In this document: positions 7,827-56,100 of the stretch, piece after piece
How positions within the stretch are numbered: position 1 is the first letter of the stretch
How the letters are laid out: every line of letters starts with the position of its first letter
Virus record (IMG/VR): IMGVR_UViG_3300041405_000299
Span: 1-64,000 of that record
DNA: 64,000 bases
Reading direction: 5' to 3' (one strand)
Source of the DNA: a virus
Notes under the pieces: model-generated
The model's input: only the letters and a program-made list of their open reading frames with translations
What the model was told of the DNA's origin: nothing
Database searches by the model: none
Made by a program: the position numbers and the translations under genes

Positions 7827-7837
7827 GAGGATTTACA

Positions 7838-7903
7838 ATGACTGGTATCGCAATCATAGCAATATGCATCGCAATTACTTACTGGTTCTACCGGGGTCGT
7901 TAA
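7838..7903 (+). CDS. 21-aa single-helix mini-protein candidate
   Basis: SD GGAGG 7 nt upstream. Translation is [22 protein letters not shown] terminator follows. Confidence 0.4.
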
Positions 7904-7916
7904 GGCCCCGTTTTTT
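7892..7916 (+). terminator. Intrinsic terminator
   Basis: CGGGGTC-gttaa-GGCCCCG followed by T6. Confidence 0.65.
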
Positions 7917-7926
7917 AGGAGACGTT

Positions 7927-8079
7927 ATGTATAAGCACAACCGAGGAGAGATCAAAGAGAGTGCTGTTAAAGCCATTCTCCATGATCCTCTTTTTAGCCA
8001 GAAAGTGGAACGCCCCAAGAAAGGGAAGGGTTCCTACCGCCGTTCTAAGACTTGGTCAAGCGGGCGCGAGCCTGCTTAA
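7927..8079 (+). CDS. arfA: Alternative ribosome-rescue factor A (ArfA) homolog, 50 aa
   Basis: [46 protein letters not shown] aligns with E. coli ArfA [38 protein letters not shown] (recalled from memory). Confidence 0.8.
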
Positions 8080-8179
8080 CTAACCCTCTCACGTTTCCTT
8101 CACGGATTGCCTTCACGCCGGGTCGCATTGAATTTGCGATGACGCTGTAGTTGTTGGTGAATCGAGCTGGATTGATCAT
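8045..8179 (-). CDS. Antisense 44-aa basic ORF overlapping the arfA 3' end
   Basis: Strong SD GGAGGT 4 nt before the ATG (8179). Translation is [44 protein letters not shown]. This is the C-terminal part of track ORF 8045..8512(-). Confidence 0.4.
8058..8077 (+). promoter_or_regulatory. 3'-terminal hairpin in the arfA-like ORF
   Basis: AAGCGGGC-gcga-GCCTGCTT, 8 bp including one G:U. It ends on the first base of the TAA stop. The position is analogous to the RNase III hairpin of E. coli arfA. Confidence 0.55.
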
Positions 8180-8242
8180 AGTTACCTCCAAATTGATTTT
8201 ATCGTAATGCTCAGGTATAGTCGAGAAAACGGAGGACTCCCT

Positions 8243-8734
8243 ATGCTTGACTACTACATCACTGGCGCCTACTTCAAAGGGGCCGAAGCGATTAAACCTG
8301 CCTTTACCGACTTCACTGATTTCCCCGCATGCTTTTCCGTGATGCAAGATTCTCTTGGCGTGCGTCCCGGTGCCCACATGGCCATGACGTTCATGCTCCT
8401 TGACGAAGAACCTATCGAAGACCGAGACATCACGATCCGTTACGGATGGGGTGGCCACGACGGCCAGATCCTCGCGTCCGTTCTTGATGAAGATGGCGCG
8501 GTGCTTAACCAAGGTTTTGTCATCATTCTGGACGTCAAAACGGGTAAGCTCGAGAGCCGTCGACTAGATGGTCGAACCGACGACGATGCTTTAGATGACG
8601 CTATTAAAATCATCCTAGAATACGGCAACTACATGCTTGCCGGTATCAACTGGGGTGCGTTTCTCCTGCACGAGTATGCGGAGGGGCGGCTCGAACAGTA
8701 CTTTGAAGACGCAATCAACCAGGAGATCCACTGA
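8243..8734 (+). CDS. Acidic hypothetical protein (163 aa)
   Basis: ORF track 8207..8734. The ATG at 8243 follows the SD GGAGG. TGATG overlap with the next gene. Confidence 0.75.
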   Translation: MLDYYITGAYFKGAEAIKPAFTDFTDFPACFSVMQDSLGVRPGAHMAMTFMLLDEEPIEDRDITIRYGWGGHDGQILASVLDEDGAVLNQGFVIILDVKTGKLESRRLDGRTDDDALDDAIKIILEYGNYMLAGINWGAFLLHEYAEGRLEQYFEDAINQEIH

Positions 8735-10509: not shown

Positions 10510-11186
10510 TGACCGAGCGCAAAGTCAAGGATAAAGACAAGGCGACTCTGGCAGGGGCGGCTTCGGCCGTCCTCGCTAGCCGGGCACCGAAGAATCTTCT
10601 TGGATATGAGAAGGTCCATCACGGCACGAGTACATCTGCTGCTGAAAGCATTAAGAAAACTGGTCTGAAGAAGTCTTACTCGGGCAAGGGTGTGGCGGCA
10701 AACGATGTGGCAATGGGCCGTGCAACACACGATCAGGTAAAAGGTAAAGTCTATACCTCAACGATGGGTGCTGTAGCCGATGCTCACCGCCCGGGGATCG
10801 GAGAGATGAAAATGGGCCAACGTTTGACGGCTCGCGTTCCGTACCGCAGCAAGAAGCGTTTAGGTGAAGACCATGTGTTTAAGAATATGGTGGATGGCAA
10901 AGATTCCCATACGAATTACGGTAAGGTCCAACGCACCCTGGCGAAGCCTCAGTTGAAGTCGCTTCGGATCTACAAGCACTCGATTCCTTCTCGCTTCATC
11001 GAAGGTAGTCATGACTATGCCGGCCGCAAACAGTTTGCCTCAAAGGGAAACCTTCGTCGCTACCTGTCACAAGCCGGTGGTAAAGCCCGTTTTGCCAAAG
11101 GTGTAGCTGAAGCTGCCGGGGCCGGCGCCGCTGGACTTTACGCTGCAGCCAAAGCTATCAAAGCCCATAAGGATGCCAAGAAATGA
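10509..11186 (+). CDS. Paralog A of an HGTS-motif protein (tentative ADP-ribosyltransferase/Tpt1-like fold)
   Basis: TAATG coupling. LLGYEKVHHGTSTSAAESIKKTGL and GKVYTST resemble the ART/KptA pattern LYHGT...I...GL...VHLS. Gly/Ala-rich C-terminus. Confidence 0.45.
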   Translation: MTERKVKDKDKATLAGAASAVLASRAPKNLLGYEKVHHGTSTSAAESIKKTGLKKSYSGKGVAANDVAMGRATHDQVKGKVYTSTMGAVADAHRPGIGEMKMGQRLTARVPYRSKKRLGEDHVFKNMVDGKDSHTNYGKVQRTLAKPQLKSLRIYKHSIPSRFIEGSHDYAGRKQFASKGNLRRYLSQAGGKARFAKGVAEAAGAGAAGLYAAAKAIKAHKDAKK

Positions 11187-11575
11187 GTCTGTACAAAATT
11201 GCCAAGAGTTTGAACCAGATCAAAGAAGAACGTTCTCACCGTAATCGCCGTCTGGAAGCCGCTCCGTACATTGCTACGGGTGCAGCTGCCGTTGGATCGG
11301 TCGCTCATGATCTTTCCAAGAAGACGGGGAACCCTCGGATGACCATGAAGGGCGGCAAGATGGTCCGTGGAGAACAGCGTAGTTACCATCAGTTCCGGGA
11401 GAAGAGTCCGACCGGGAAGATGAACTACCTGAAAGCTTCCGGTGCTAAAGCCATTCCGCGTGCCCTGGCCGTCGGTGCCGGTACGGCGATCGCCACGAAA
11501 GCCTACAAGTACCTGGCCGAAGAGAAGGCCCGCCGTGAGGAAAAAGCCCGTCGCCGTGAGCTTAAAGGCCATTGA
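11183..11575 (+). CDS. Basic Lys/Ala/Gly-rich protein (130 aa)
   Basis: ATGA coupling. Same compositional family as 7030 and 8734. Confidence 0.8.
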   Translation: MSLYKIAKSLNQIKEERSHRNRRLEAAPYIATGAAAVGSVAHDLSKKTGNPRMTMKGGKMVRGEQRSYHQFREKSPTGKMNYLKASGAKAIPRALAVGAGTAIATKAYKYLAEEKARREEKARRRELKGH

Positions 11576-11626
11576 CGGAGCAGGGCCGCCGGTGTAAGCT
11601 GGCAGCTCTACTCACAGGAGAACACC

Positions 11627-11854
11627 ATGAAAGACCAACACGAAAAGATCAAGGGCTACCGCGATCTGTCCCAAAAAGAAATCGACAAAATGAACGCGAT
11701 CAAAGACGCCGGTAACGCACTGGGTGCTCTGATTGAAGACCTGCAGGGCCTCGAAGGTCTGGACCAACGCTTCATCTCCATCGGTAAAACCGACGTGCAG
11801 AAAGGCCTGGCCATGATCATCCGTGGTATCGCACAGCCTACAACGTTCTGCTAA
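11627..11854 (+). CDS. Hypothetical small protein (75 aa)
   Basis: SD AGGAGA. Translation contains KGYRDLSQKEIDKMNAIKDAGN...GKTDVQKGLAMIIRGIAQPTTF. Confidence 0.75.
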   Translation: MKDQHEKIKGYRDLSQKEIDKMNAIKDAGNALGALIEDLQGLEGLDQRFISIGKTDVQKGLAMIIRGIAQPTTFC

Positions 11855-12015
11855 TGAACGCGTGGGGTTGGGCAACGGTCGTCGTCGCGTTTGCCGTTAT
11901 TGTGTTGATGATTTACGATGACCTTCGGGAAGCCAAGCAGGAGTGTGAAGAGGTGAAATCCTCATACCCATACTGGCTTTCTGCCGCGTTCTGGATCACT
12001 CTGTTTTCTCTCTAA
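11854..12015 (+). CDS. Small membrane protein (53 aa; below the ORF-track cutoff)
   Basis: TAATG coupling. Translation is MNAWGWATVVVAFAVIVLMIY... A terminator follows. Confidence 0.6.
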   Translation: MNAWGWATVVVAFAVIVLMIYDDLREAKQECEEVKSSYPYWLSAAFWITLFSL

Positions 12016-12035
12016 GCTCCTTCGGGAGCTTTTTT
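12015..12035 (+). terminator. Intrinsic terminator (UUCG tetraloop)
   Basis: AGCTCC-ttcg-GGAGCT followed by T5. Confidence 0.75.
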
Positions 12036-12046
12036 CATTTCAGGGG

Positions 12047-12075
12047 TTGACAGCCCGATTGGCCTCGGTTAGGAT
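12047..12075 (+). promoter_or_regulatory. sigma70-like promoter for tRNA island C
   Basis: TTGACA-N17-TAGGAT. Confidence 0.55.
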
Positions 12076-12084
12076 TATCCCATC

Positions 12085-12261
12085 GCTCCCTGGTACGTGG
12101 GAGCCTAAAGTGCCAGCGGATCCCTAACGAGTGCTGCAAACACTCCGAAGAAGATCACTGATAACGTGCAAGGCAACTGCGGAAGGTTTTTCTCTTTCCT
12201 TCCTTCCCGCCTCCTTTGCTGGTAGTCACGCCAGTGCCGAAAGAGTGATAGATGTACCGGA
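12085..12261 (+). ncRNA. ORF-free structured leader upstream of tRNA-Asn
   Basis: Hairpin GCTCCC..GGGAGC. GCGGAAGG pairs with a downstream polypyrimidine tract TCCTTCCTTCCCGC. No SD-led ORF. Confidence 0.35.
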
Positions 12262-12336
12262 TGGCCTATCGTATAGCGGTTATTACGGCGGACTGTTAAT
12301 CCGTTTACCCTGGTTCGATTCCAGGTGGGCCAGCCA
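12262..12336 (+). tRNA. tRNA-Asn (GUU)
   Basis: Anticodon arm GCGGA-CTGTTAA-TCCGT, T arm CCTGG-TTCGATT-CCAGG, encoded CCA. Confidence 0.8.
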
Positions 12337-12367
12337 AGCAGTATCTCGTATCCCATATAGTTACTTT

Positions 12368-12408
12368 GGGTGGGTTCCGAATCCTGAATGAGAACCCACC
12401 TCTTTTTT
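12368..12408 (+). terminator. Intrinsic terminator
   Basis: 10-bp stem GGGTGGGTTC/GAACCCACCT followed by T6. Confidence 0.7.
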
Positions 12409-12419
12409 CGGAGAGTAAA

Positions 12420-12605
12420 ATGCTGAGTCCAGAACAAGCAAGGCAGTACGAGAAGTTGTGTGTTGAGAGCGTATCTGCTCGCGTACCTTTAGCGTCCGAA
12501 GCCCCAGTGGGGAGCGAGTCGACTTTGGGGTGCGGGACCAAATGCGTTTTTGAACCCATTGAGGCGCTGGCTTTTGCGTCCGAAGGCTCCCGAGCAGCGA
12601 GTTGA
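12420..12605 (+). CDS. Candidate 61-aa ORF with an internal repeat (could instead be a structured RNA)
   Basis: SD GGAGAG 4 nt upstream. The nucleotide repeat GCGTCCGAAG..AGCGAG occurs twice. Overlaps a 13-bp inverted repeat. Confidence 0.3.
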   Translation: MLSPEQARQYEKLCVESVSARVPLASEAPVGSESTLGCGTKCVFEPIEALAFASEGSRAAS

Positions 12606-12634
12606 CAACTGAGGCGCCGCCTCAATGGGTTTAT

Positions 12635-12721
12635 CCGAGAGTGGTGAAACTGGTATATACATGAGACTTAAAATCTTCCGCTCGTAAGGGCATGTGGGTT
12701 CGACTCCCACCTCTCGGACCA
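12635..12721 (+). tRNA. tRNA-Leu (UAA), type II
   Basis: Anticodon loop CTTAAAA, long variable arm, T arm GTGGG-TTCGACT-CCCAC, encoded CCA. Confidence 0.8.
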
Positions 12722-12729
12722 GTATTTAC

Positions 12730-12805
12730 GCCGTTATAGCTCAGCAGGCAGAGCGCCACACTTGTAATGTGGATGTCCCGGGTTCGATTCCTGGTGGCGG
12801 CACCA
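12730..12805 (+). tRNA. tRNA-Thr (UGU)
   Basis: Anticodon arm CCACA-CTTGTAA-TGTGG, encoded CCA. Confidence 0.85.
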
Positions 12806-12807
12806 AC

Positions 12808-12883
12808 GGATAGACAGGCTTGTAACGGCACGGCGAGGGTACCCTAAGCGTGTCAGCGTGAGGTTCAATTCCTCACCTATCCA
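12808..12883 (+). ncRNA. tRNA-sized element with acceptor and T arm but no anticodon stem-loop
   Basis: Acceptor GGATAG(A)/(C)CTATCC and T arm TGAGG-TTCAATT-CCTCA. The central 44 nt give no 5-bp/7-nt anticodon arm. No CCA. Confidence 0.45.
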
Positions 12884-12890
12884 CTAATTT

Positions 12891-12969
12891 GGAAACTGTA
12901 CGGTACAGCTATCAGCTCACCGTTGAAAGAATACGGACAAGTCGGCTCGACTCAAGACGTACGGTTTCC
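12891..12969 (+). ncRNA. Structured RNA closed by an 11-bp terminal helix
   Basis: GGAAACTGTAC (12891-12901) pairs with GTACGGTTTCC (12959-12969). Internal hairpins AGCT-atc-AGCT and AGTCG-gct-CGACT. Confidence 0.4.
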
Positions 12970-12974
12970 TCCTT

Positions 12975-13049
12975 GCATCCTAAGTGTTGTCGGTGGCACA
13001 GCGTCCTTCCAAGTCGCGAGGACCGGTTCGAGCCCGGTAGGATGCTCCA
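12975..13049 (+). tRNA. tRNA-Gly (UCC)
   Basis: Anticodon loop CTTCCAA (one U:U in the stem), T arm ACCGG-TTCGAGC-CCGGT, encoded CCA. Confidence 0.7.
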
Positions 13050-13063
13050 ATTTGAGAGGCTGT

Positions 13064-13234
13064 ATGAATTACGTTAAGTTGATCGCGATGTTAATTGGCA
13101 TCGCCGCCCTGGTAGCAGGCTTTTACTTCTTCCTCGGTGTGGTACTGGCAGTTGCAGTCTTTGCGTTAGTCATTTGGTACCTCTCTGCAGCAGCAGAATC
13201 CCTTTGGATTAAGCTCTGCAGTAAGTTTCGGTAA
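13064..13234 (+). CDS. Small membrane protein (56 aa)
   Basis: Internal ATG of track ORF 12923..13234 after the SD GAGAGG. Its last 5 nt overlap the next tRNA. Confidence 0.55.
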   Translation: MNYVKLIAMLIGIAALVAGFYFFLGVVLAVAVFALVIWYLSAAAESLWIKLCSKFR

Positions 13235-13304
13235 AGTAGCTCAGCGGCAGAGCAGCTCCTTCATACGGAGACGGTCGGTGGTTCAATCCCACCCTTTACC
13301 ACCA
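13230..13304 (+). tRNA. tRNA-Met-type (CAU)
   Basis: Anticodon loop TTCATAC, T arm GGTGG-TTCAATC-CCACC, encoded CCA. Met versus Ile2 is not resolvable by eye. Confidence 0.75.
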
Positions 13305-13404
13305 GATAGTGCAGTGCCCGTAACGGAGGTGATCGCTATCTTGATGGTCCTAATGGACAAGTCCGAAGGTGCCGCCGCGAGGCAAGATCTGAGGGCGAAC
13401 CCGT

Positions 13405-13479
13405 AGCAGGGTGGAGAAGTGGCATCTTGCCAGGCTCATAACCTGGAGATCGAGGGTTCGAGTCCCTCTCCCGCTTCCA
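13405..13479 (+). tRNA. tRNA-Met/Ile2-type (CAU)
   Basis: Anticodon arm CCAGG-CTCATAA-CCTGG, T arm GAGGG-TTCGAGT-CCCTC, one acceptor mismatch, encoded CCA. Confidence 0.7.
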
Positions 13480-13510
13480 CATGAAAGCATATTCCAGAGT
13501 GTTCTTTCAT

Positions 13511-13587
13511 GTGGCCATATCATAATTGGTTAATGATCCTGGTTGTGAACCAGGCCTATGTCGGTTCAACCCCGACTGGTCACCCCA
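13511..13587 (+). tRNA. tRNA-His (GUG)
   Basis: Anticodon arm CCTGG-TTGTGAA-CCAGG, C73. The base at -1 is T, not G. Confidence 0.8.
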
Positions 13588-13601
13588 AACAGGAGAGTGT
13601 T

Positions 13602-13760
13602 ATGAAGCCTTACGGTTTGAAGCTCGGCGGAAACCCAGGATGTAACTGCGGTCGATGTAAACGTCGGGGTTGGCGTGAAGGCGCCACTCAGAACACCATC
13701 TGTAAAGCTTCTGCACGTCAGGAAGCAAAACGTATCATCAACGGCGGGTTGGCAGAGTGA
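13602..13760 (+). CDS. Small basic Cys-rich protein (52 aa)
   Basis: SD AGGAGA. Translation contains CNCGRCKRRGW. The last 18 nt overlap tRNA-Cys. Confidence 0.5.
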   Translation: MKPYGLKLGGNPGCNCGRCKRRGWREGATQNTICKASARQEAKRIINGGLAE

Positions 13761-27355: not shown

Positions 27356-27375
27356 GGTATAAGGAATATAGAGAA
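27356..27375 (+). promoter_or_regulatory. Degenerate promoter-like motif (GGTATAAGGAATATAGAGAA)
   Basis: Motif family member. Confidence 0.4.
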
Positions 27376-27945: not shown

Positions 27946-29166
27946 ATGAGTATCCCTGAGTATTACCTTCACATGTTCGCTGGCATTAACGGCGATCACG
28001 ACCAATACACCGGTGCCGGCCGCATTGCGATCGCGGCCTTAATGTCCGGATACGGCTTGAACGCCTCTACCAAGAAAGATCTGCAAGCCCGTATCAACTG
28101 GGTGCAAACTCCGGGTTGTTTCTTAGGCCAGAAAGAGTTGAAGCATGACTCTTGGGGTATCCGCCACCGTCCGGCGCTCGGCTTCCTGATCGACTTAGTG
28201 GAAACGCGTAAAGCTAACCGCACGTTGAACTACACTTTAAACTGGGCGACGCTCAACAAAGAAGGTCGCCGTCTGCACATCACCAGTGAAATCTGGCCGG
28301 TCGTGGCCCGCGTCTACTGGCTGGGTTACTTCATGTTCGGTCGCAACGTTATCCCACAGGAGATCCTGGCCGAAGCGAAAACCCGTTTCTCTATCTCTAG
28401 TCAGCAAGGCGAACAGATGAGCAACCTGCATAACGCCTACATCATGCAGTTTTTCTACAACGAAGGTTTCTTTGTGGGACAAACGATTCCCAGTGAGTGG
28501 ATCGAAGGCTTCATGCCGGCGTCTCAGGTAGAAGTGGAAAACACCCGCCTACCGCGGGAGAAGATCTTTCTGAGCTTAGCCTTAGCGATGAACTTCAGTG
28601 AGAACACCACAGGTTTCTTTGCTGCGTGTGCGGCGATACCGATGGTCCTAACTCCTGGCCAGTCTTTCGGCGGAGTTAATGATGCCTTCGAAGCATACGA
28701 TATGGCTCGGAGCTCTCTGGAGCGTGGCCATCAGATGCCAATGACCTCTCGTTGGGGATCTTCCTACAACCTGACTTCTGCGTCTATGCACGTGATTGAT
28801 GCCGCACCTAGCCGTTTCCCTACGTCTATGCGGGAGATCGTTCCACTGCTGCTCTGCGACCGTTCGACCACTCCTCAACAGGAAGCGGCCAATGGTTACC
28901 ACCCGAGCTTCGGGCAGTTCCAACCTGACCTGCTGGACCGTAACTTAAACACGTACATTGCCGGTACCCTACTGTACGAATATCACTTGCTGCTCACTGG
29001 CCGCGAGATTACGCCTTTGCAAACCCTTCGCGACGCCCGGGAACGTGCAGGCTTCACGGAAGAAAACATCGTGATCGCCGCCCAAAGCATGCATCCTATG
29101 GCACAGCGTAACTGTACCGTTTGGCGTTTAGTGAAATTCCATCTGGATCGTCAGAACCAGGTATAA
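27946..29166 (+). CDS. Hypothetical protein (406 aa)
   Basis: SD AGGAG. ORF track. Confidence 0.85.
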   Translation: MSIPEYYLHMFAGINGDHDQYTGAGRIAIAALMSGYGLNASTKKDLQARINWVQTPGCFLGQKELKHDSWGIRHRPALGFLIDLVETRKANRTLNYTLNWATLNKEGRRLHITSEIWPVVARVYWLGYFMFGRNVIPQEILAEAKTRFSISSQQGEQMSNLHNAYIMQFFYNEGFFVGQTIPSEWIEGFMPASQVEVENTRLPREKIFLSLALAMNFSENTTGFFAACAAIPMVLTPGQSFGGVNDAFEAYDMARSSLERGHQMPMTSRWGSSYNLTSASMHVIDAAPSRFPTSMREIVPLLLCDRSTTPQQEAANGYHPSFGQFQPDLLDRNLNTYIAGTLLYEYHLLLTGREITPLQTLRDARERAGFTEENIVIAAQSMHPMAQRNCTVWRLVKFHLDRQNQV

Positions 29167-29179
29167 GTAAGTTGTAAAC
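29160..29179 (+). promoter_or_regulatory. Conserved phage promoter-like motif (GGTATAAGTAAGTTGTAAAC)
   Basis: Consensus copy overlapping the stop of the 406-aa gene. Confidence 0.55.
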
Positions 29180-29922: not shown

Positions 29923-29942
29923 GGTATAAGTAAGTTGTAGAC
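29923..29942 (+). promoter_or_regulatory. Conserved phage promoter-like motif (GGTATAAGTAAGTTGTAGAC)
   Basis: Consensus copy upstream of the Ant-like gene. Confidence 0.55.
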
Positions 29943-31693: not shown

Positions 31694-31713
31694 GGTATAA
31701 GTAAGTTGTACAC
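31694..31713 (+). promoter_or_regulatory. Conserved phage promoter-like motif (GGTATAAGTAAGTTGTACAC)
   Basis: Consensus copy. Confidence 0.55.
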
Positions 31714-37937: not shown

Positions 37938-38091
37938 TACTCTATAGATATGGAAGGGTGTGTCATTCTCAGCGTGCACGACGTCCAGACGTATCAATCT
38001 TCTTTTTCGTTGACATCTTAACCAAATCCCTGGAACGTCTTCGTAACTTTGTGGTACAATCTCAATAATGCTTAATCCACAGGTATAACTA

Positions 38092-38111
38092 ACGTAGACA
38101 CCGGAGACTCC
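38092..38111 (+). promoter_or_regulatory. Degenerate promoter-like motif (GGTATAACTAACGTAGACAC)
   Basis: Also TGTGGTACAAT (extended -10-like) at 38050-38060. Confidence 0.4.
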
Positions 38112-43987: not shown

Positions 43988-44007
43988 GGTATAAGTAAAG
44001 AGTAGAG
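43988..44007 (+). promoter_or_regulatory. Conserved phage promoter-like motif (GGTATAAGTAAAGAGTAGAG)
   Basis: Motif family member. Confidence 0.5.
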
Positions 44008-47469: not shown

Positions 47470-49635
47470 TTAGTCTCTGCGGATAATGACCTTGAGGTCA
47501 CCACCGAAATCGCCACTGCGGTCAAACTTCAGGTCGCCGCCGCCACGGCCGTCACGGTAATGACCATCCTGTACGGCACGAGCATCGGTTAACGCTCCGT
47601 TCGCCAGGTAGGTTCCACGGGTAATCGGAGAAGTCCCCGGGGTCTGCGTGAAAGCCAGTGTCATTTCGATCGGGTCACCGTCGTTCACTGGGAAGTACGT
47701 CGGCAGGATATCTGCTTGTTCAACCACCAGCGATACCGACCAGTTATCCTGGAAGATCTCTGAGAAGAGAAGCTTACCGGTCAACGGCAGGTCTTCCTTG
47801 CGTGGCACGTACATTTGGCCGGCATGCTTCGACAGAATCGGTGGCACGTAACCGTCAGTGTACTTGAAGGTAAAAACCTTCTCCAGTGTCGGATCGTAAG
47901 CGTCAGCGGTGGTACCTGCGGTTCGCACGATGATATCATCATAGTGATCCTGGAGGGCGATATCGCCGGCCCAGAAAGGATGTGCTCCGCTTTGTACCAA
48001 TGCCGCTGACACATTGATTTTAGCCAGTTTGTCCTTGAGCTCGTCTTCGTGACAGAGATACAGGGGGACAATGTTACGCGTGTCCGCTTGCAGAGCCTGG
48101 CCGTCGGCGTTTAAATAGGTCCGTACAAGGCCGATGGAGGTAGAGGTATCACTACCCCTCTTACCGCGGATACCGGTCGAACGGCCGCGAACGACTGCCA
48201 TAGATCCTCGTGAGGAGAAGACGGGGTCGACGCGATGAATGTCGGACTCGATGTCTTCTCCAGCTTCAGTAACCCATCCACCAATTCCTGAAATTGCGGT
48301 CCCATCTGCATTTCGTCCTCGAAATTCACCGAGTTTGGGGTTGTCACCGAGCAGTTGCTGATGGTAGACAGGGATCTGGCAACGGTTGTAGAAATTTGTG
48401 CCGCGATCAAAGTACGTAGCTCGGTCTCCTCGAACAAAGTCAATGATGGCCGTGTCATAAATGTTATCCTCGATGTCGACACGTTGATTCATCTCGAAGT
48501 CGGTGTCGGTGATGTAAACAATTTCGTCACCCATCGGTGCACGCCACACGAATACCGGGAAGGTATGGCTCGGGCGGGCCCGCCAGATAACGTCGGAAAC
48601 CGTGTAGTAGCCCTTGAGGTCCACGCCGGTTTGCTGGAATAGTACCATGAAGGTGTTGTACTTCAAGTAATTCCGCATGATGTAAGCCATATCGGTATTC
48701 GGCTGCACAGGAGGATACTGCACGCCACCGGTCAGTTCGCCAGGAATGAAGGTGTTGTACCACCATTCACCAGACTTCTGGTAATCCTTGATATCCACCC
48801 AGTTGATTAGCTGCGTGCCTTCAATCAAGTCGTCTCCGACGGCCACGTCCGGTTGGAAACCGTAAGGGATGTCGTAGAAGTTGGTGGCGGTCAGGATCTC
48901 CCAGTGACCGTTGATCGGGTTCTGCAGCACGTTCATCACTCGCTCGTTGGCACGAACGGTTGGGATCCCCAGAGCCAGGTTCACGCCGGCCTGGATGTAG
49001 TTGATCACCGGGCCGTGCGAATACAGGAAGTACAGACCATTAACAAAGTCTTTGTAGTTCCCAATCGCCCGGTCCTGCGTCATGCCCACGGCACGCCCAA
49101 ACTGAGAGTAGATGATATCTTCGTCAATGCACACGTTTGACGCCCACAGAGCAAACTGCGTGACGCCTTCTGCCGTGACACGCTGAGGGAAACCCAGCTC
49201 AGCCAGGGGCTTGTAGAAGGAGATCTGCGTGTAATCTTCACTGATCTCAAAGTGCACGCCCTGAGACAGAGAGATTGTCGGCAGCATCGGACGGTTCATG
49301 ATGAAGTCGATCTTCGTGGTACGTTCCGGAAGCTTGAACACCGAGCCCGTCAACCCATCGATAGCATCGGCTGGGTTAAAAAGAAACAGTTTCAGCTGAG
49401 AGTTGTAAGACTCCTGGATCGTACGCAGCGAAAGGTTACCCGCACGCTGCAGGAAGCCGCCGTAAGCGTCACCGAGCTGCTGGGTGGAAACCTCGAGGAG
49501 GGAATCCACGAGGTCTTGGTCAGCGAAGATCTGCAGCCAGAAGTCAGACAGCCCATAGTAATAGGCCATCTGTCCTTTCACTGCAGCACGCTCACCGATG
49601 CCGGTTAAATCGGCTGATGAGATGTAGTTGCTCAT
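47470..49635 (-). CDS. Baseplate/tail-fibre-like structural protein (721 aa)
   Basis: SD GGAGAG. Lies downstream of the baseplate-J-like gene. Confidence 0.6.
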   Translation of the reverse strand: MSNYISSADLTGIGERAAVKGQMAYYYGLSDFWLQIFADQDLVDSLLEVSTQQLGDAYGGFLQRAGNLSLRTIQESYNSQLKLFLFNPADAIDGLTGSVFKLPERTTKIDFIMNRPMLPTISLSQGVHFEISEDYTQISFYKPLAELGFPQRVTAEGVTQFALWASNVCIDEDIIYSQFGRAVGMTQDRAIGNYKDFVNGLYFLYSHGPVINYIQAGVNLALGIPTVRANERVMNVLQNPINGHWEILTATNFYDIPYGFQPDVAVGDDLIEGTQLINWVDIKDYQKSGEWWYNTFIPGELTGGVQYPPVQPNTDMAYIMRNYLKYNTFMVLFQQTGVDLKGYYTVSDVIWRARPSHTFPVFVWRAPMGDEIVYITDTDFEMNQRVDIEDNIYDTAIIDFVRGDRATYFDRGTNFYNRCQIPVYHQQLLGDNPKLGEFRGRNADGTAISGIGGWVTEAGEDIESDIHRVDPVFSSRGSMAVVRGRSTGIRGKRGSDTSTSIGLVRTYLNADGQALQADTRNIVPLYLCHEDELKDKLAKINVSAALVQSGAHPFWAGDIALQDHYDDIIVRTAGTTADAYDPTLEKVFTFKYTDGYVPPILSKHAGQMYVPRKEDLPLTGKLLFSEIFQDNWSVSLVVEQADILPTYFPVNDGDPIEMTLAFTQTPGTSPITRGTYLANGALTDARAVQDGHYRDGRGGGDLKFDRSGDFGGDLKVIIRRD

Positions 49636-51215
49636 GCACTCTCCGGAGTGATCGTAAAGGTATCCAGGTAGAAGCGCTGGGTCGAAGCCGCAGTGTACCC
49701 GTCAGTAACCGGGGAAGAAGTCTTCACCAGATCCTTCGAGATTGCCGTCGCCGTTACGTCCAGTGGCGCCTTCACGCTCGTCAGTCCTGCATCCCCGATC
49801 AGTTTGTAGATCTCTGATACGTAGATGGTACCATCAACTGGCGTCTGGTTGAAGTACGCTTCGATCGCCGCCCGGGCTGCGGAGAGTTTTGCCGTGTCAT
49901 AAGACGACTCGTACCCACTGGCTTTGATGTCAATCAGGATTGGCTCGAAGGCACGGGCCAGCTGGTTGGCACACACCACACGGTTCTGCTGATCTTCCAG
50001 GAATGACTGAATGTCTTCCAGACCAACAAACTTGCGAACCACGAAGCTCGCCGTCATGTTCGGGTAGTCCCGGCCAAAGTCGATGTGAACGATTTGGCTT
50101 GCTGACAGACCGTAGTCTTTCTGCGGTACGAGAGGCTTGTGATCCGTGTACACTGTGGTGTTCGGGTAGGACACAGCTGCTTCGGCGGTCATCGGGATAG
50201 TATCAGCGTCAACACCACCGGACAGCGTTGAGCGGTCAACATCGAAGATCGGACCGGTGATTTCAATCACACCCGCAGCGTTCGTCGTGTATTGCACAAC
50301 GGAAGTACGGAACGCGGTATCCGCATAGATGTCCACGGCGCCACCGATGTGGATACGGAATTTATCCTGCAGATCAGGATCACCCATCACGCCCTCCACC
50401 TGGACGTAATCACGCCACATGTCGGGGTCACCCATACCAACCACTTTGATGTACTTGATGTAGTTAAACACGTCGTACAAACGAGAGGTGATCGACGGAT
50501 CGTTGATCAGGTTACGGGTTGAGATCGAGTTGTATGAACGCTCCACCATTTCCAGGTTGGTTTCTTCACGAACGGCCGGTGAGTCCTGATACAGGATCTT
50601 CCCCTTCACGAAGTACGGGTTGAACAGCGTGAAGTACAACAGATCGCCTTCCGTCAGGTCGTTAAACGCTTCGTCAGACGACTGAGAGGACAGGTTTGTG
50701 TCGAAATACCACAGCTCTTCCGAAGAGTCGTACGACAGGTACACGTTTCCGGAGATCGGAGTGTCACCGTCTTTCAGCGGCTGGGCAAAGACTGGGGCCG
50801 TCGGGTAGAACATGTACGTGTTGTCGGTTGAGAAGTACGCCGACGTTGGCAGGCTCACGTTGCTCGGCGTACCGTTCTGAAACAGGAAGTACAGGCGTGC
50901 ACGTACCGTCGCGTAGGATCCACTGTTACGGTTAACGAAGAAGTTCGACAGGATGTTGTCGACCACTTCTGCCGGCGTATCATTGGTCACGTTGGCCAGT
51001 GTCGCTGAGTCAAAATACGTTTCGGTGTACTTGCGGATCAGGGCGATGAGCATTGCGTTAGGGCGAATCACTAAGTCCCGCACACCGGTACCCTGACGGA
51101 AGTCAACCGTCGGGAACTTCGACTCCAGGTATTGCTGGGCGAAGGTTTCAGCTTGCTGGACGTCATCGGCAGACAACTCCAGCGAATTCATTACGGAAAA
51201 GATATCGTTAGCCAC
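49632..51215 (-). CDS. Baseplate J-like protein (527 aa)
   Basis: GTG start after GAGGTG. Assigned by its position immediately after the gp25-like gene and by its size. Confidence 0.5.
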   Translation of the reverse strand: MANDIFSVMNSLELSADDVQQAETFAQQYLESKFPTVDFRQGTGVRDLVIRPNAMLIALIRKYTETYFDSATLANVTNDTPAEVVDNILSNFFVNRNSGSYATVRARLYFLFQNGTPSNVSLPTSAYFSTDNTYMFYPTAPVFAQPLKDGDTPISGNVYLSYDSSEELWYFDTNLSSQSSDEAFNDLTEGDLLYFTLFNPYFVKGKILYQDSPAVREETNLEMVERSYNSISTRNLINDPSITSRLYDVFNYIKYIKVVGMGDPDMWRDYVQVEGVMGDPDLQDKFRIHIGGAVDIYADTAFRTSVVQYTTNAAGVIEITGPIFDVDRSTLSGGVDADTIPMTAEAAVSYPNTTVYTDHKPLVPQKDYGLSASQIVHIDFGRDYPNMTASFVVRKFVGLEDIQSFLEDQQNRVVCANQLARAFEPILIDIKASGYESSYDTAKLSAARAAIEAYFNQTPVDGTIYVSEIYKLIGDAGLTSVKAPLDVTATAISKDLVKTSSPVTDGYTAASTQRFYLDTFTITPESA

Positions 51216-51714
51216 TGGTCACCTCATTAAGTACTAGGCCGTTACTGTTAAACGGCAGGGCAATCGGGGCACCCACACCGGCTTTGGTCAAGACGCGGAC
51301 CTTGATGATCGTCGTTTCGCTCCCCTGAACGGCGTCCAGTACCTCTACGCTCTCCAGTTGGGATTCCGCAGAGTACAAATAGGAGTTCAGGATGGCTTTC
51401 GCCTGATCGCTCGCCTGCTTGATCGCCGCAGTGATCGCCGCTTTGGCCGCCACAGAGTCCTGCGTGATGTTAGAATACCACACGAACTCCGAGAACTTGG
51501 TTCCCTGCTTCGGATAAATCGGATCGGTACCGGTACTCGTCATCAGACACTTCACAAGCACCTGAACGACTTTCTGCAGGCCGGTAATCTTACGCGGGTT
51601 GTTGCCCAGAGTAAATTCCAGCTTGGAGTTCGGGAAGCCGTCCGGGAAGCTCAGCAGCAGGAGATCGTAACGGTCCTGTTGTTTTAGGTTTTCACTATTG
51701 CCTACACGGGCCAT
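51208..51714 (-). CDS. gp25-like baseplate wedge protein
   Basis: SD GGAGGA. GLQKVVQVLVKCLMTSTGTDPIYPKQGTKF resembles the GPW/gp25 core. Confidence 0.5.
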   Translation of the reverse strand: MARVGNSENLKQQDRYDLLLLSFPDGFPNSKLEFTLGNNPRKITGLQKVVQVLVKCLMTSTGTDPIYPKQGTKFSEFVWYSNITQDSVAAKAAITAAIKQASDQAKAILNSYLYSAESQLESVEVLDAVQGSETTIIKVRVLTKAGVGAPIALPFNSNGLVLNEVTSG

Positions 51715-52103
51715 TATTCCTCCGGCGCCTGACGCGCTCCAGTTAAGTTGTACAGATTATTCTGCATGTTGTTCTGCCAGTTCGCCTGTCGAATTCCGGC
51801 GTCGGCAGCCGCTTCTCGGTAGTAATCCGCTCGTGTCATCTGTCGGAGGGCCATTTCTGCCGTGACCGAGTCGATGCTACGAAAGGAATCTAAAAGAGCG
51901 GCGTTGGTCGTAGAAGCAGAACCGTTTACACGGCTCTGGATGGCTCTACGCATATCGGATAGATCTAAGTCCTTGATCACTTCGCCGGCATCCTTAGCGG
52001 GAGTCTCAGGGTCCCCAAGGAACCCTGAAAGACCCTGGAAGTAGCTTCCAACCGCTTTGAAATGCTTGGTGACGAGTCCTGGAATATCTGTTAGTTGTCC
52101 CAC
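51714..52103 (-). CDS. Hypothetical protein (129 aa)
   Basis: GTG start after ACGGAG. Overlaps the end of the sigma gene. Confidence 0.7.
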   Translation of the reverse strand: MGQLTDIPGLVTKHFKAVGSYFQGLSGFLGDPETPAKDAGEVIKDLDLSDMRRAIQSRVNGSASTTNAALLDSFRSIDSVTAEMALRQMTRADYYREAAADAGIRQANWQNNMQNNLYNLTGARQAPEE

Positions 52104-52795
52104 GTTCCGTACTCCGTCAGTAAAGACTGCACTTTGTCTTTAAGCTTGCCGGACGCGTAGTTATACTGGTTGATGTTCATGTTGAGAGAGCTTGCAATAT
52201 CACCTGCGGCAATCTTGTTTGCCCGTCCCTCGAAGATCTTCAGCTCGTCCGGCGTCAACTTACCTTTAATGTAGTTTAGTTTCAGCGGATCAGAGTTGAA
52301 CTTCGAGTGCTCTGGGTCATACAGGTTACCGGATTCAGCATGGTCCTGGAAGATCAAGGACTTATACTTCGTGACTTCCTTCTCCGGCCAACCCAGACGT
52401 TCACCGATCTCTTTGTCCGTCGGGTCACGACCCAGTTCGTCTTCGAGGTTGGTAACGGCGAGGTTGAACTTGCCGTACTGCAGCTGCTTGTCCTCACCCA
52501 TGTTTGCCCGGTTCTGGTACGTGTAGTTCAGACGTTTAGCTTTACGCGTCCAGTTATACACGTGAGTCGAGAGCTTGGTGCCTTTGCTCGGATCGTAATC
52601 CTTGATAGCACGGATAGCCCACGACACGACCTCACCCTTAAGAGCAGACGGTGGGAGAGAACCCGACAGCTTGGTGGTTTCGCTCTGAATGATAGGCTTC
52701 AGGTTGTTCACCAGGTTCTTCAGAGCCTTTTTGTCGCCCGTGTTCTTCCATGCATGGAACAACTCAAGGTCTTTGTCGCCTAAATCATTACTCAT
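52091..52795 (-). CDS. Sigma-70 family RNA polymerase sigma factor (phage-encoded)
   Basis: Region-2-like segment LVNNLKPIIQSETTKL...EVVSWAIRAIKDYDPSKGTKLSTHVYNW. Region-4-like HTH LTPDELKIFEGRANKIAAGDIASSLNMNINQY. Confidence 0.65.
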   Translation of the reverse strand: MSNDLGDKDLELFHAWKNTGDKKALKNLVNNLKPIIQSETTKLSGSLPPSALKGEVVSWAIRAIKDYDPSKGTKLSTHVYNWTRKAKRLNYTYQNRANMGEDKQLQYGKFNLAVTNLEDELGRDPTDKEIGERLGWPEKEVTKYKSLIFQDHAESGNLYDPEHSKFNSDPLKLNYIKGKLTPDELKIFEGRANKIAAGDIASSLNMNINQYNYASGKLKDKVQSLLTEYGTWDN

Positions 52796-52796
52796 G

Positions 52797-53087
52797 TTAC
52801 ACCTCTTGAGTTAAATTGAATGCTCGTACTACGTTGTACGCGTAGTCTACCATGAGCTGCTGCATCTGGAGCGAGTTTCGACGGTACACGAAGCAATCCT
52901 TCGCGGCCGATGTTGTCGATAAACGCTGATCGGAAATCAGAACAGTAGGAATCATGTTGTTAAAACGACGTACAATATTCATCTTCTGGGTTTCAGCCAG
53001 ACTCTCGTCCGGCTGTACCACCTGAGACTCCGGCAGTTTCGCCGGGAGTCCTTCAGGATATGTTAGAATTGCACTGTATTCTGCCAT
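52797..53087 (-). CDS. Hypothetical protein (96 aa)
   Basis: ORF track. The ATG is directly abutted by a promoter-like motif. Confidence 0.7.
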   Translation of the reverse strand: MAEYSAILTYPEGLPAKLPESQVVQPDESLAETQKMNIVRRFNNMIPTVLISDQRLSTTSAAKDCFVYRRNSLQMQQLMVDYAYNVVRAFNLTQEV

Positions 53088-53100
53088 ATTACTTATACCC
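53081..53100 (-). promoter_or_regulatory. Conserved phage promoter-like motif on the minus strand (GGGTATAAGTAAT-ATG)
   Basis: The reverse complement of 53088-53100 is GGGTATAAGTAAT, followed immediately by the ATG of the 96-aa gene. Confidence 0.5.
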
Positions 53101-56100
53101 TTAACCTAAGCCTAAGTCGAAGTGAACCGGATCGTAGGTAGAGAAGTTCCCACCCCAACGCAATTTCACTCCAAGCGAGTTCGCGACCTGGATAACGTAC
53201 TGGGCAAAGTTCTGCATCACAGCACGGGAAGACGCATGCAAATCGTTACACGGCACCATGTCTACTGCCCATGACGGCGACTTACGGTGACGAGACCCGT
53301 TGCCGGCACCCTGAGCGTAGGACGATGAGTCGTTCTCAAGGGATTGCTGCTTGGCCGATGAGCGATAACCACTGGTGACCACCACTGGACGCGTCTCGAT
53401 GACCTTCATCACGACTTTAATCAAGTCCGGGTGGCAGGTAGCCAGGATCGACTGCGAATTCGCATCCAGTACGCCTACTGAACAACGCTTACCTAGTTTA
53501 GGCAGAACGGTTGGCGTCGCTGGAGCACTCTGAGTGGCTTTATTCTCTTCGCTCGTTACTGCAGTGCCTGGCGTCGGTTGCTGATTCGTCGGACGAACAC
53601 CTTGGTTAACGATTGGGTCCGGCGTCTCTCCGTCAAACTCATAGTCGATGAACGCGGAGGATTCCATGTCACGGCCCCGCAACGTGCTACTTGATTCCGA
53701 TCCCTTGCCGTCATTGACCCACGGACCTTTACGCACTTCCTCAACGGTTGGTGACCCTTGGTTCCACATGTCGATGTCAACGAAGGTTTCTGACAGTACG
53801 CAGTGATCCTGTTCGACGTCCATTAGGGTTGCGATGTTACGGGCCACCAGGTTCAGGTTACCGAGTGTCGTCGTGTAGAGCGTCGGACGGGACGGATCGT
53901 TTACGTACTCCGAACCCCCGATCTCCCAGACGCCCATATTACGCTTCACCGGAATCGGACGACCGGTTGAATAGGACTCGAGGATCGTCGGATCGGCGGC
54001 GCCCACACCCAGAACATCAACGTAGTACTCACAGGCACGCTGGAAGGCCTTGGTGTTGCCGTACATCGACAGGTTCTCATCCATTCGTAACTGAGCGAGC
54101 AACCATGGATAGGTTCCCGGAATGTAGCACGTGGCCAGTTCCGAGAAGGTGTACGCAGAGCTGATCCCGATGTTCGTGCTGGAATAACCGGAAGCATCGA
54201 TCGAGTGGTTTACGCTCGAGCAGAAGCCATGGTAAGACTCTCGCAGCGGTGATGGATCAACCACGTCCATTGGGTAGCCGGGAACGATGAACGGGTTGAA
54301 CACCCCATCGATCACGCCAGAGCGGGCCTGAGAGTAAATGTTCGAATACTCAACGTCCACACCGGTGAAGAACAAGCGTTCATACGCATTGGTTCCGGAC
54401 AGATCTGCATCCCATGGGTTCAGACTCGGGTCTTCCGGGTACAGCTTAAGCCACGCTGCTTTCAGTTTGGCTGCCGTGTCTGCGTCCGCCAAGTCACCCA
54501 CGTTGGCCGAAGGAGATTGCTGAGCCAGAACGGCATACCAGAACGGCAGAGTACCGTCAGCGGTACGTACACCGCTCGCCCACTCGTATTTGCCCGGCGT
54601 TGCTCGCAGTGGCAGCAGTGTCTTCGACAGGTTACCACCGTTTGCCAAGGCTTTACGGACAGAATGTGGGGCAATGAAGTTGTGGCCAAACACGTCGGTC
54701 TGGGCGTTCATGACCGAATCTGCTTGGAACGGCATCGCGTTGTAGATCACACGGGATGGCACGGAGTCCGTACCCAGGTTCACGCTCATGCTTTCATACA
54801 TGTGAGGCAGAATCACGTTACAGATTGGTGAGTAGTAGGCGAACATCTTCGGTTTGAAGACGTGGTCGATTACCTCACGCTTACCTGCAATCCCCAGGAC
54901 CGCCGGTGAGTTCAAGATCACGTGGTCATATTCCACGAGGTTCATAAACTGGTCGACAAACTGCCCAAAGGACGTCACTTCACCGGTCCCGCCGGACATC
55001 AGATCGTTGGACATAATGTGCAGCAACTGTTCAGCCATGGCCCGTGGCATCATGCCGTTCAGGTTACCAGGAATCAGCTTACCGTTACCTGACGCCATCT
55101 CCTCGTTCGACCCTTTAGCTGCTGCCGCATTGGCTGCAATCGACTGGGCGGACGGGAGTGGCGCGTCCAGGAAGAAGGAACGGTCACGAGAGCGACGAGA
55201 TACCAGACCCTGGGATACCGAACCGCCTGCATGCACCCAATCCATGAACGCTGCTGCGGCGCCTTCAGTATTGCCTTCCGTAATCAAACGGACGATCGTT
55301 GAAGGTTGGCCGCTAGCCTGCCACAGTGCTCCATCTTTACCACCGCGGCCGCCGGGCCCAACGTTAAAGGTAAGATCCACGAGAGCGTCAAACTGGCCCT
55401 GAGACAGGGTAAGCCCAAGCTTATTCACCGCATCTTCCGCAGAGCGAATATCCTGGGACAGTAACTTGTCGACTTCCAAGTCGCTTAATGTCTTACCGTC
55501 GTAGGCCGTCTCTGTTTTAGCTACGGCATGACCCACGCCGATCGTAGGCGTACCCACCGCATCTGCTGCGTGAGCAATCTCTTTGCCAGTCTTATCGTCG
55601 TACAGCTTATAACGACGGCCTTCAGAGAATTCAAGGAGCTCTTTCTTGCCGCGGGCAGACATAGACTTCGAACCTACCGTTGGCGTTGGCGTCGTACCTT
55701 TGTTTTCAGCCGTTTGCGTGGTCGTCGGGGCCGGCGTTGGGGCAGTCTTGCCGTCTTTCTGAACGGAACCTTCAATGACAGGATGTCCGGACATGCGGTT
55801 GAAGTAATTCAAACCGATTTCCAGCAGCGGGATGTACATCTTGGTCATGATCGACTTGTCCTGCTGGGTATCCGAGGAGTAAGCCGAGCGTTTCAGAGAG
55901 TTCCACATACCGACGACGATTCCAGGGATCCCCTGAAGACGCCAGTAGTTGTCACTCATGGTCTCTGACAGCACGGAAGTATCCCCGCCGCCCTGCTCGA
56001 TGCTCACGTCACCTTCACGGGGTTCGTGGACGCCGGCCAAGGCTTGTTCGATAGCGAAGACTGACCCGATGTTGTTCCCATCAACCATAATACCGAAAGC

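Follow-up and report, generated by a model that had tools for sequence, protein, structure and literature searches.

Large phages that encode parts of their own transcription machinery are divided in reviews into two groups, one with a multisubunit RNA polymerase and without sigma homologues, the other with sigma homologues and without a polymerase (PMC7824862; PMC13282480). The phiKZ- and AR9-like jumbo phages make a multisubunit beta/beta'-type enzyme late, carry it in their particles and are thought to use it to transcribe the first genes after injection; these enzymes have no recognisable sigma-70 homologue, and their specificity subunits (gp68 of phiKZ, gp226 of AR9) are undetectable by sequence. 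In phages like SPO1 (gp28, gp33/34) and T4 (gp55), sigma-family proteins that act on the host core set the temporal promoter classes, and their genes are located among regulatory or early-middle genes. Here we analyzed a stretch of viral DNA of 64,000 nucleotides (positions 1 to 64,000 of the IMG/VR virus record IMGVR_UViG_3300041405_000299; hereafter the window), in which a sigma factor gene (52091-52795, minus strand) is located within a baseplate operon, together with a recurrent promoter-like element (motif 1), one copy of which is found at a gene junction just upstream of that gene. Within the phage collection, only Salmonella phage Arash is closely related to the window (76% nucleotide identity), and the lineage as considered here comprises the Arash-like Salmonella/enterobacterial phages, the Vibrio phages D69, D148 and D181 and around 30 metagenomic relatives (individual ones carry an L number below). 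This lineage encodes both a polymerase and sigma factors and therefore lies outside the two-group division. The sigma gene itself had already been annotated as such in Arash (gp10). What is new is its conserved structural-operon context, the three promoter classes, an apparently selected junction element, and the combination of a polymerase and true sigma factors in one lineage. Beyond the Arash isolation paper, no literature on this transcription system was found.

The 234-residue product of the sigma gene, orthologous to Arash gp10, is a diverged yet complete group-3-type sigma-70-family factor, composed of a sigma2 domain (residues ~1-97), a sigma3 domain (~101-149), a flexible linker (149-167) and a sigma4 domain with a helix-turn-helix (~170-233). 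The first-pass annotation had recognised region-2-like and region-4-like segments and called the open reading frame (ORF) a member of the sigma-70 family, and this identity is borne out, albeit by other profiles than those it had named. Pfam Sigma70_r2 was matched only below threshold (17 versus 24 bits, E=0.005) and Pfam r4 not at all in the window's protein, whereas Sigma70_r3 scored above its cut-off (33.2 versus 25.3 bits, E=5.6e-8) and a profile of 16 family members aligned with SigA from the PDB over region 2 to region 4.2 (E=2e-17). A homologue that is 62% identical (P0014) does match Pfam Sigma70_r4_2 (PF08281). Moreover, phmmer aligned the protein to residues 412-501 of RpoD, PHROG 351 ('RNA polymerase sigma factor') was matched, and among NCBIfam models FliA/WhiG ranked first (E=9e-10), at 38 bits against a family cut-off of 326. 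The AlphaFold2 (AF2) model, with a predicted local distance difference test score (pLDDT) of 75, contains three helical domains, including helices at 170-233, and a disordered linker. A Foldseek search with this model recovered sigma factors only, in alignments over the full length.

The residues that are used to read promoters are unusual. In the alignment (E. coli numbering), four of the -10-reading residues are changed (Y430H, W433N, Q437K and T440R) and W434 and R436 are retained, while in the alignment with the SigA profile the -35-reading arginines of region 4.2 are substituted. Three of the four core-binding residues checked in region 2.2 are altered as well (D403A, Q406G, N409V; E407 is retained, SigA profile alignment). 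Given the unusual -10- and -35-reading residues, an altered promoter specificity is to be expected; the changes in the -10 residues argue for a changed specificity and not for exclusion from the sigma-70 family. The guanine-cytosine content dips mildly across the gp9 homologue upstream and the sigma gene (0.49-0.50 versus 0.53-0.56), and beyond this dip the composition gives no sign of a recent acquisition of the gene.

The lineage that harbors this sigma factor also encodes an RNA polymerase of bacterial type. In Arash, gp206 (1525 aa) represents beta fused to the N-terminal half of beta' (Rpb2_6 at 2.8e-56, Rpb2_3, Rpb1_1 and Rpb1_2), gp216 represents the C-terminal half of beta' (Rpb1_5), and the gene directly after gp216 encodes an SNF2 helicase (gp217). 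The beta'-N part of gp206 aligns with bacterial beta' and with cyanobacterial gamma at 1e-47, and the split between gp206 and gp216 lies at a point similar to that between gamma and beta' in cyanobacteria. The DxDGD catalytic motif is intact and the segment of the clamp helices, where sigma2 usually docks, is alignable; overall, the Arash enzyme is around 28% identical to bacterial RpoB/RpoC. The Arash genome contains a single polymerase locus and two sigma genes, gp10 and gp196. The second sigma factor, gp196, has a region 2 close to that of primary sigma factors (LIAAGNEGL, YAGWWVMQ) and also possesses a region 4. It shows no significant similarity to the gp10-type sigma in BLASTP (E=1.4), on which ground a recent paralogy of the two was rejected. 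Arash, D69 and four IMG/VR genomes of 176-183 kb each contain a gp10-like sigma, the second sigma and the polymerase fusion, and a phage polymerase was present in every sufficiently complete genome carrying a gp10-like sigma. The likely partner of the window's sigma would thus be this phage enzyme, and not the E. coli core polymerase that had been put forward for in vitro transcription.

Some further observations were made on these genes. The annotated start of gp196 (Arash OQ632216, 120656-121693; 30656-31693 in L005) is probably 59 codons too far upstream: in relatives, stop codons interrupt the N-terminal extension, which also overlaps the beginning of a gene on the minus strand, and the likely start is MGLTKYYEE at 120833. 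In D181 and D148 (~144.07-149.57 kb) the polymerase fusion is matched in two pieces with an annotated homing endonuclease in between, which suggests an insertion of the intron or intein type. Finally, the polymerase genes are co-directional and overlap with genes of the portal/head module (gp204-gp206 and gp216-gp218 in Arash; L005/L002).

The published proteome of Arash particles lists both the polymerase and the sigma factor (PMC10585845). The gp206 fusion was the most detected protein, with 128 unique peptides and 100% coverage; gp216 was represented by 40 unique peptides (89% coverage), gp217 by 38 (100%) and gp10, the orthologue of the window's sigma, by 24 (100%), and the second sigma gp196 was not on the protein list (PMC10585845). 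Computed from the same data, the number of spectra per residue is 2.3 for gp206, 2.0 for gp216, 2.4 for gp217 and 2.0 for gp10, and such similar values are compatible with one complex.

The genomic position of the sigma gene is conserved. Between 46.6 and 64 kb every gene of the window is located on the minus strand and the genes are densely packed. Upstream of the sigma gene in the direction of transcription are a gene for a virion-type cell-wall hydrolase of 1171 aa (53101-56616), with a lysozyme domain at residues 348-477 and an endolysin-like domain at the C-terminus (1050-1168) by Pfam/PHROG, whose orthologue Arash gp8 is a virion protein, and a 96-aa ORF without an assigned function (52797-53087), which is identified by position and homology as the counterpart of Arash gp9. 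The sigma ORF begins at 52795, one base after this small ORF, and the sequence reads a strong Shine-Dalgarno, AAGAGGTG (52800-52807), in the 3' end of the latter. Downstream, a 129-aa ORF homologous to Arash gp11 (51714-52103) overlaps the sigma stop codon and is followed by genes for a 168-aa gp25-like baseplate wedge protein (51208-51714; a weak match to PHROG 43, E=0.007, which is also next to sigma in relatives) and a 527-aa gp6-like baseplate wedge subunit (49632-51215; PHROG 6, E=1.8e-11), the latter of which follows sigma even in L017 and L019. All these genes are on the minus strand. The earlier description of the locus, a sigma gene between a lysozyme/M15 protein and baseplate genes, is thus right with respect to the lysozyme (Phage_lysozyme) and the baseplate wedge but was not confirmed with respect to M15, for which Pfam is silent and only PHROG endolysin families are found at 1050-1168.

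The family of this sigma protein comprises just 22 clusters in a set of 5.8 billion proteins. The sigma of L015 is 89% identical to that of the window, and the identity is 43-45% for the metagenomic relatives L006 and L008 and 43% for the Vibrio phages D69, D148 and D181. In L006, L008 and D69 the order gp7, gp8-core, (small ORF), sigma, gp12, gp13, gp14 is retained (tblastn), D148 and D181 likewise preserve the arrangement of genes around sigma, and in L017 and L019, where the sigma is 28-35% identical, the order is kept only downstream, for the wedge genes gp13 and gp14. Moreover, in D69, L006 and L017 the sigma gene or the small ORF abuts or overlaps the preceding structural gene, which leaves no space for a promoter. 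Host-type promoters and terminators were not enriched within 46-64 kb (8 versus 10.7 expected and 17 versus 15.2 expected, respectively), and a hidden sigma-70 promoter or terminator around the sigma gene was dropped for lack of that enrichment. Judged from this synteny, the sigma is an old and integral member of the baseplate operon and its location in the tail module is not incidental. Considering that it is translationally coupled to structural genes and lacks its own promoter in most of the family, it is therefore expected to be made late, together with the virion parts. And since the polymerase overlaps with head genes and the sigma with baseplate genes, every component of the putative holoenzyme is encoded within a morphogenesis operon.

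The small ORF is found constantly just 5' of sigma in the Arash-like, D69 and L006/L008 clades and was not reported from Arash particles. The window's copy had no significant family match in Pfam or PHROG. The sole Pfam match, SNURF, was below threshold and disregarded, and an internal GTG start was rejected, as the homology with D69 begins at residue 10. By its position alone, the protein could be a partner of the sigma factor, such as an anti-sigma factor or a packaging chaperone.

Motif 1 constitutes a real sequence family. At up to one mismatch, GGTATAAGTAA occurs 13 times in the window against 0.47 expected from shuffles, 12 times on the plus strand (1601-43988) and once on the minus strand (53089-53099), and a position-weight scan agreed with this distribution. 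The plus-strand copies are located at 1601-1617, at 5457-5473 (34 nt ahead of an ATG with a GGAG Shine-Dalgarno), at 6908-6924 (immediately 5' of the tRNA gene at 6925-7000), at 7807-7823, 29923-29939 and 31694-31710, and ahead of the ORFs at 18260 (18218-18234), 19363 (19326-19342), 27392 (27356-27372), 29200 (29160-29176), 38114 (38082-38098; a TATAAC variant) and 44022 (43988-44004). Typically, a copy precedes an ATG bearing a GGAG ribosome-binding site by 32-42 nt. The copy directly ahead of the tRNA gene implies that motif 1 is a transcriptional and not a translational signal, and places the start no later than motif position 18. With a weight matrix, 35 sites were located in Arash on the early/non-structural strand and one on the late/structural strand, at the gp8/gp9 junction. 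The counterpart in D69 reads tGTTATAAGTAATAT(G/A)(T/G)A; it was obtained by direct reading of intergenic gaps, and a search for strand-asymmetric 8-mers in D69 yielded coding-bias words only. The copy at 1601-1617 is followed by a conserved stem-loop of 10 pairs (1623-1646, plus strand) in the predicted 5' untranslated region, with an Arash copy at 65056, and similar hairpins follow many of the D69 copies.

The consensus is GGTATAAGTAArgTGTA, in which T14, R15, T16 and A17 are informative, and an alignment of 44 sites gives t-G-G-T-A-T-A-A-G-T-A-A-r-g-T-G-T-A. The conservation thus extends past TATAAG, as had been noticed in the first pass. When TATAAG is taken as -12 to -7, a conserved T-G falls at -1/+1, the predicted start, and T-A-A is conserved at -6 to -4. 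Among the 44 sites T is found at -15 in 61%, G at -14 in 98% and A at -11 in 98%, and position -7 is occupied by G in 87% and by T in 1%. T at -7 is a key base for sigma-70, which holds it in a pocket, and a G in this place is unfavourable. Motif 1 was said to lack a -35 element; TTGACA is absent indeed, but a weak tCcATAAA box (0.3-0.5 bit at 8 consecutive positions) is present at around -35 to -28, ~13 nt 5' of the motif core. Altogether, the alignments support motif 1 as a strictly gene-oriented, promoter-like element, whose -10-like hexamer with G at -7 would suit a dedicated factor better than sigma-70. The earlier proposal of a dedicated factor therefore appears right in spirit.

The single minus-strand copy is found at the junction between the 1171-aa hydrolase gene and the 96-aa ORF, where mismatch search and position-weight scan both confirmed it as the sole copy on that strand, abutting the ATG at 53087. 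The minus strand reads ...GGT TAA GGGTATAAGTAAT ATG GCA..., in which TAA (53103-53101) is the stop codon of the hydrolase gene, GGGTATAAGTAAT (53100-53088) constitutes the entire 13-nt intergenic gap and ATG opens the 96-aa ORF. The copy, G-GGTATAAGTAA-TATGGC (53083-53100), with TATAAG at 53097-53092 and a predicted start at ~53085, is co-oriented with the structural genes and runs into the first codons of the small ORF; its ATG provides T14 and G15 of the start box, and the resulting TAATATG variant is the norm in D69. With a position-weight score of 21.2 it falls within the range of the other copies (18.8-30.3). A single minus-strand match to the 8-mer GGTATAAG is unremarkable by itself, as ~0.9 are expected per strand by composition. 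What chance does not explain is the exact 11-mer (~0.015 expected per strand), together with its conservation and the fact that it occupies the one real gap in an operon of 18 kb. The 11-nt match is exact in the window and its closest relatives (L009-L011), and the lineages of Arash, L012-L014 and L015 have GGGTATAAG followed by AAA, AAC or AGA. Hence, GGGTATAAG is invariant in six distinct relatives and 3 of the 13 spacer positions vary, in a context in which third codon positions nearby are variable in 21 of 30 cases and first and second positions in 11 of 60. The invariant block includes TATAAG and not GGG alone, and the three bases that vary are those closest to the ATG. This pattern supports the junction copy as a -10-like element under selection.

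What such an element would produce can be deduced from the geometry of the motif, in which the start is expected at positions 15-17 and the A of the junction ATG is position 13. A transcript would then begin at the G of the ATG, which would leave the 96-aa ORF untranslated and make sigma the first well-placed gene. The (nearly) leaderless transcript for the 96-aa ORF that had been suggested is a strained reading, as a start at the A requires a discriminator of 4 nt and the predicted start lies within the start codon. Folding of the minus strand at 53040-53160 revealed no excess of RNA structure over shuffles (z = -0.2), and a structural or attenuator role of the junction was dropped for that reason. 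In D69 (OZ195729, 5391-5401, plus strand; L016), an exact GGTATAAGTAA is present on the structural strand inside gene 0004, a location other than that in the Arash clade.

Motif 1 is not the only promoter type of this phage, as a host-type and a late-type class exist as well. Host-type promoters are enriched in the first 20 kb of the window (25 versus 13.2 +/- 3.4 expected), with the nine best all on the gene strand, and such an enrichment was not seen outside this region. The examples on the plus strand at 366, 6253, 12047, 13993, 16537 and 19027 have a perfect TTGACA, a spacer of 16-17 nt and a TAnnnT hexamer, and several of the host-type promoters are located just 5' of tRNA clusters, interleaved with motif 1 copies. 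The second-sigma gene is preceded by TTGACT-N17-TACTAT, of which the hexamers are kept across two clades while the spacer differs; the corresponding promoter in D69 was examined and could not be classified. The third class, cTAAAATA(t), is represented in the window by CTAAAATA at 63149-63156 on the structural-gene (minus) strand, 17 nt ahead of the ATG of the gp2 homologue. In Arash it is found 5' of the structural-strand genes gp2, gp39 (endolysin), gp185, gp204 (portal), gp212, gp216 (beta'-C), gp218 and gp241, with sites at 1601, 30632, 109248, 128083, 137630, 139406, 142676 and 173498, and in D69 sites occur at 1504, 31104, 34824, 41173 and 47911. Often, the late-type element and a reversed motif 1 lie back to back, CTTATACC adjoining CTAAAATA. 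No -35 box was visible by eye in 15 aligned sites of this class. As to the tRNA genes themselves, 25 are found in the window at 4140-19303, among which is one with a CUA anticodon (16575-16649) that resembles an amber suppressor, and ARAGORN called two with a four-base anticodon (4502-4575 and 6925-7000).

On the basis of the above we propose, with a probability of roughly 45%, that a virion-delivered phage holoenzyme containing the gp10-type sigma reads motif 1 and that the junction copy boosts the expression of this sigma. The sigma would be packaged in the particle with the beta/beta'-N fusion, beta'-C and the SNF2 helicase, and sigma and polymerase would enter the cell along with the DNA in the next infection. 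As its specificity subunit, the sigma would recognise motif 1 as a weak tCcATAAA box, ~13 nt, tGGTATAAGTAA and a T-G-T-A start region, and the promoters of this type would serve the units for nucleotide metabolism and replication and some of the tRNA units on the opposite strand. The host sigma-70 holoenzyme would read the separate TTGACA-N17 set, including the promoter of the second sigma, and this second, more canonical sigma would most likely redirect transcription to the late promoters of the cTAAAATA type. Within the Arash-like clade, the most likely role of the junction copy would be that of an internal promoter, by which the incoming holoenzyme raises the level of its sigma ahead of the late phase. 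Two arguments underlie the model. A sigma that is made only late cannot initiate transcription within that cycle unless the particle brings it in, which matches the Arash proteomics. And considering that the second sigma keeps YAGWWVMQ and that gp10 is altered at these positions, gp10 is the better candidate for reading a non-canonical hexamer. The pairing of sigma and motif, the core partner, the injection and the activity of the junction are all deduced from comparisons of this kind. More broadly, we tentatively suggest, at somewhat less than an even chance, that this lineage packages a bacterial-type polymerase of two polypeptides with a true sigma-70 subunit, and that the same core is re-programmed later by the second sigma.

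Several points weigh against this model. The assignment of a sigma to a motif on the basis of residues is suggestive at best, and both motifs start with TA. The genes for the polymerase and the second sigma are not within the window but are deduced for its phage from relatives, e.g. L015. The Arash preparation was not clean, as 116 of the 252 proteins were reported from it, including ribonucleotide reductase and ligase (PMC10585845), and abundant late proteins could be contaminants. An internal promoter at the junction would lead to early expression of 7 kb of baseplate genes as well. The junction copy lacks T16 and A17 of the start box and matches 4 of the 8 positions of the upstream box, its Arash version scores just 13.9, near background, and it is clade-specific, being absent in D69, L006 and L008. 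Finally, the hydrolase stop codon and the following GGG form a possible UAAGGG ribosome-binding site 10 nt 5' of the ATG of the 96-aa ORF, which could account for part of the constraint on the junction.

The last two of these points lead to the alternative that survives best, one that does not depend on which of the delivery and cascade models is right, in which the junction copy is no promoter but the stop codon, ribosome-binding site and spacer of a coupled gene pair, and sigma is produced only from the long late transcript. The spacing of UAAGGG is usable for translation, the 8-mer is expected about once per strand, and near-matches do arise, as Arash gp237 has GGAATAAGTAATG as a plain ribosome-binding site and spacer. 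We take this explanation seriously and would give it a chance not far below one in two. It does not account well, however, for an exact 11-mer at the junction of the window, nor for the agreement of this copy with the D69-type consensus ...TAAGTAATATG through position 15. Moreover, an invariant TATAAG spacer next to three variable ATG-proximal bases is the opposite of what a simple ribosome-binding-site constraint would leave.

The main rival to particle delivery is a sigma cascade, in which host sigma-70 leads to the gp196-type sigma, this sigma reads motif 1 as a middle promoter, the junction copy then yields the gp10-type sigma, and the latter reads cTAAAATA, including that of the polymerase and structural genes. 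The presence of sigma in particle preparations would then reflect late abundance or passive trapping, in line with the non-structural proteins that contaminate the Arash proteome. Sigma cascades are used by SPO1 and T4. The cascade is better than the favoured model in accounting for the fact that the only structural-strand copy of motif 1 sits just 5' of sigma and is conserved there, and it agrees with the conserved host-type promoter of the second sigma, a gene which lies on the early strand in D69. Nevertheless, the junction promoter is absent in D69, L006, L008, L017 and L019 although sigma is in the same operon, so that a late sigma would, in most of the family, have no means of being produced ahead of late transcription. 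Furthermore, the second sigma has canonical Y/W/W/Q residues, which suit TAAAAT (A at -11, T at -7) no less than TATAAG, and gp10 possesses a sigma4 domain while the upstream box is seen at motif 1 and not at cTAAAATA. Given these conflicts, we consider the cascade unlikely.

Less likely again is a classical host take-over, in which the gp10-type sigma binds the host core, like T4 gp55, SPO1 gp28 and phiEco32 gp36, and its place in the tail module is functionally meaningless. The domain order and the nearest profiles (FliA/WhiG, SigD and SigA) are typical of factors that bind bacterial core, and phage sigma homologues are thought in reviews to act on the host polymerase (PMC13282480; PMC7824862). 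Against this stand the phage polymerase that accompanies the gp10-type sigma in every sufficiently complete genome, the changes in three of the four region 2.2 core-binding residues checked, a baseplate synteny that is conserved far past chance placement, and the detection of the orthologue gp10 in Arash particles.

The least probable alternative is that the host polymerase itself reads motif 1 as an extended -10 (TGnTATAAg), possibly appropriated by the phage with an activator at the -30 box as in the middle promoters of T4, while the gp10-type sigma does something else. T at -15 and G at -14 indeed constitute a TGn (tG-N-TATAAG in the D69 consensus), the T4 MotA box has the same position as the weak box centred near -31, the phage also uses host-type promoters, and D69 is annotated with an Srd-like anti-sigma factor; yet the near absence of T at -7 disagrees with an extended -10 sigma-70 promoter, a strong T-A-A at -6 to -4 and a conserved start region are not sigma-70 features, and two phage sigmas and a polymerase would be left without a promoter class.

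If the proposed model is correct, the viruses of this lineage would possess a self-contained holoenzyme system that includes sigma switching. It would offer a tractable enterobacterial system for studying how a genuine sigma works with a minimal beta/beta' core that lacks alpha and omega, a route to understand how the specificity for a hexamer with G at -7 is built, and a route to the packaging and the ejection of a holoenzyme through a contractile tail. If the model fails, the finding reduces to a familiar kind of phage sigma cascade. The three clean promoter classes can be used for the annotation of this phage family.

Comparison with the known systems makes clear where the lineage resembles and where it departs from each of them. 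With the jumbo phages it shares a multisubunit enzyme that is apparently made late and that, in Arash, may likewise be carried in the particle, judged from high peptide counts in a preparation that also contained many non-structural proteins, and the SNF2 helicase gene that adjoins the beta'-C gene in those phages (PMC7824862) recurs as Arash gp217. It differs in having two sigma factors that are detectable by Pfam, one set of polymerase genes in place of the two (virion and non-virion) of phiKZ/AR9, a polymerase that is ~28% identical to RpoB/RpoC and has beta fused to beta'-N, and genomes of ~176-187 kb, which is under the jumbo-phage size limit. With SPO1 and T4 it has sigma-family proteins and three promoter classes including a host-type early class in common, and cTAAAATA resembles the T4 late promoter TATAAATA. 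However, in SPO1 and T4 no such gene is part of a baseplate operon, and T4 gp55 consists of a sigma2-like part only, which reads TATAAATA without an upstream element, whereas the window's protein contains sigma2, sigma3 and sigma4 and has no match to the gp55 family in Pfam or PHROG. Coliphage N4 parallels the proposed model in its particle-borne, injected polymerase and in the mixed use of phage and host polymerase across temporal classes, but the polymerase of N4 is of the single-subunit, T7-like kind, forms a domain of a giant protein, and uses hairpin promoters and no sigma. The group-3 factors FliA/WhiG (sigma-28) are the best NCBIfam and Foldseek neighbours of the window's sigma, with the same size and three-domain order. 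In their promoters, as in motif 1, the upstream box is rich in A (...TAAA) and the -10 region is long, highly conserved and terminates in ATAA; the spacing of the box differs by ~3 nt and the -10 core is GCCGATAA instead of GGTATAAG, and we regard this likeness as a resemblance only. The extended -10 promoters of sigma-70 (TGnTATAAT) share the TG at -15/-14, the TATAA core and the lack of TTGACA with motif 1, which departs from them in its -7 G, the TAA at -6 to -4 and the T-G-T-A start region. Thus, among the systems compared, it is the Arash-like lineage that has both its own polymerase and sigma factors, one of which is encoded among baseplate genes and reported in particles.

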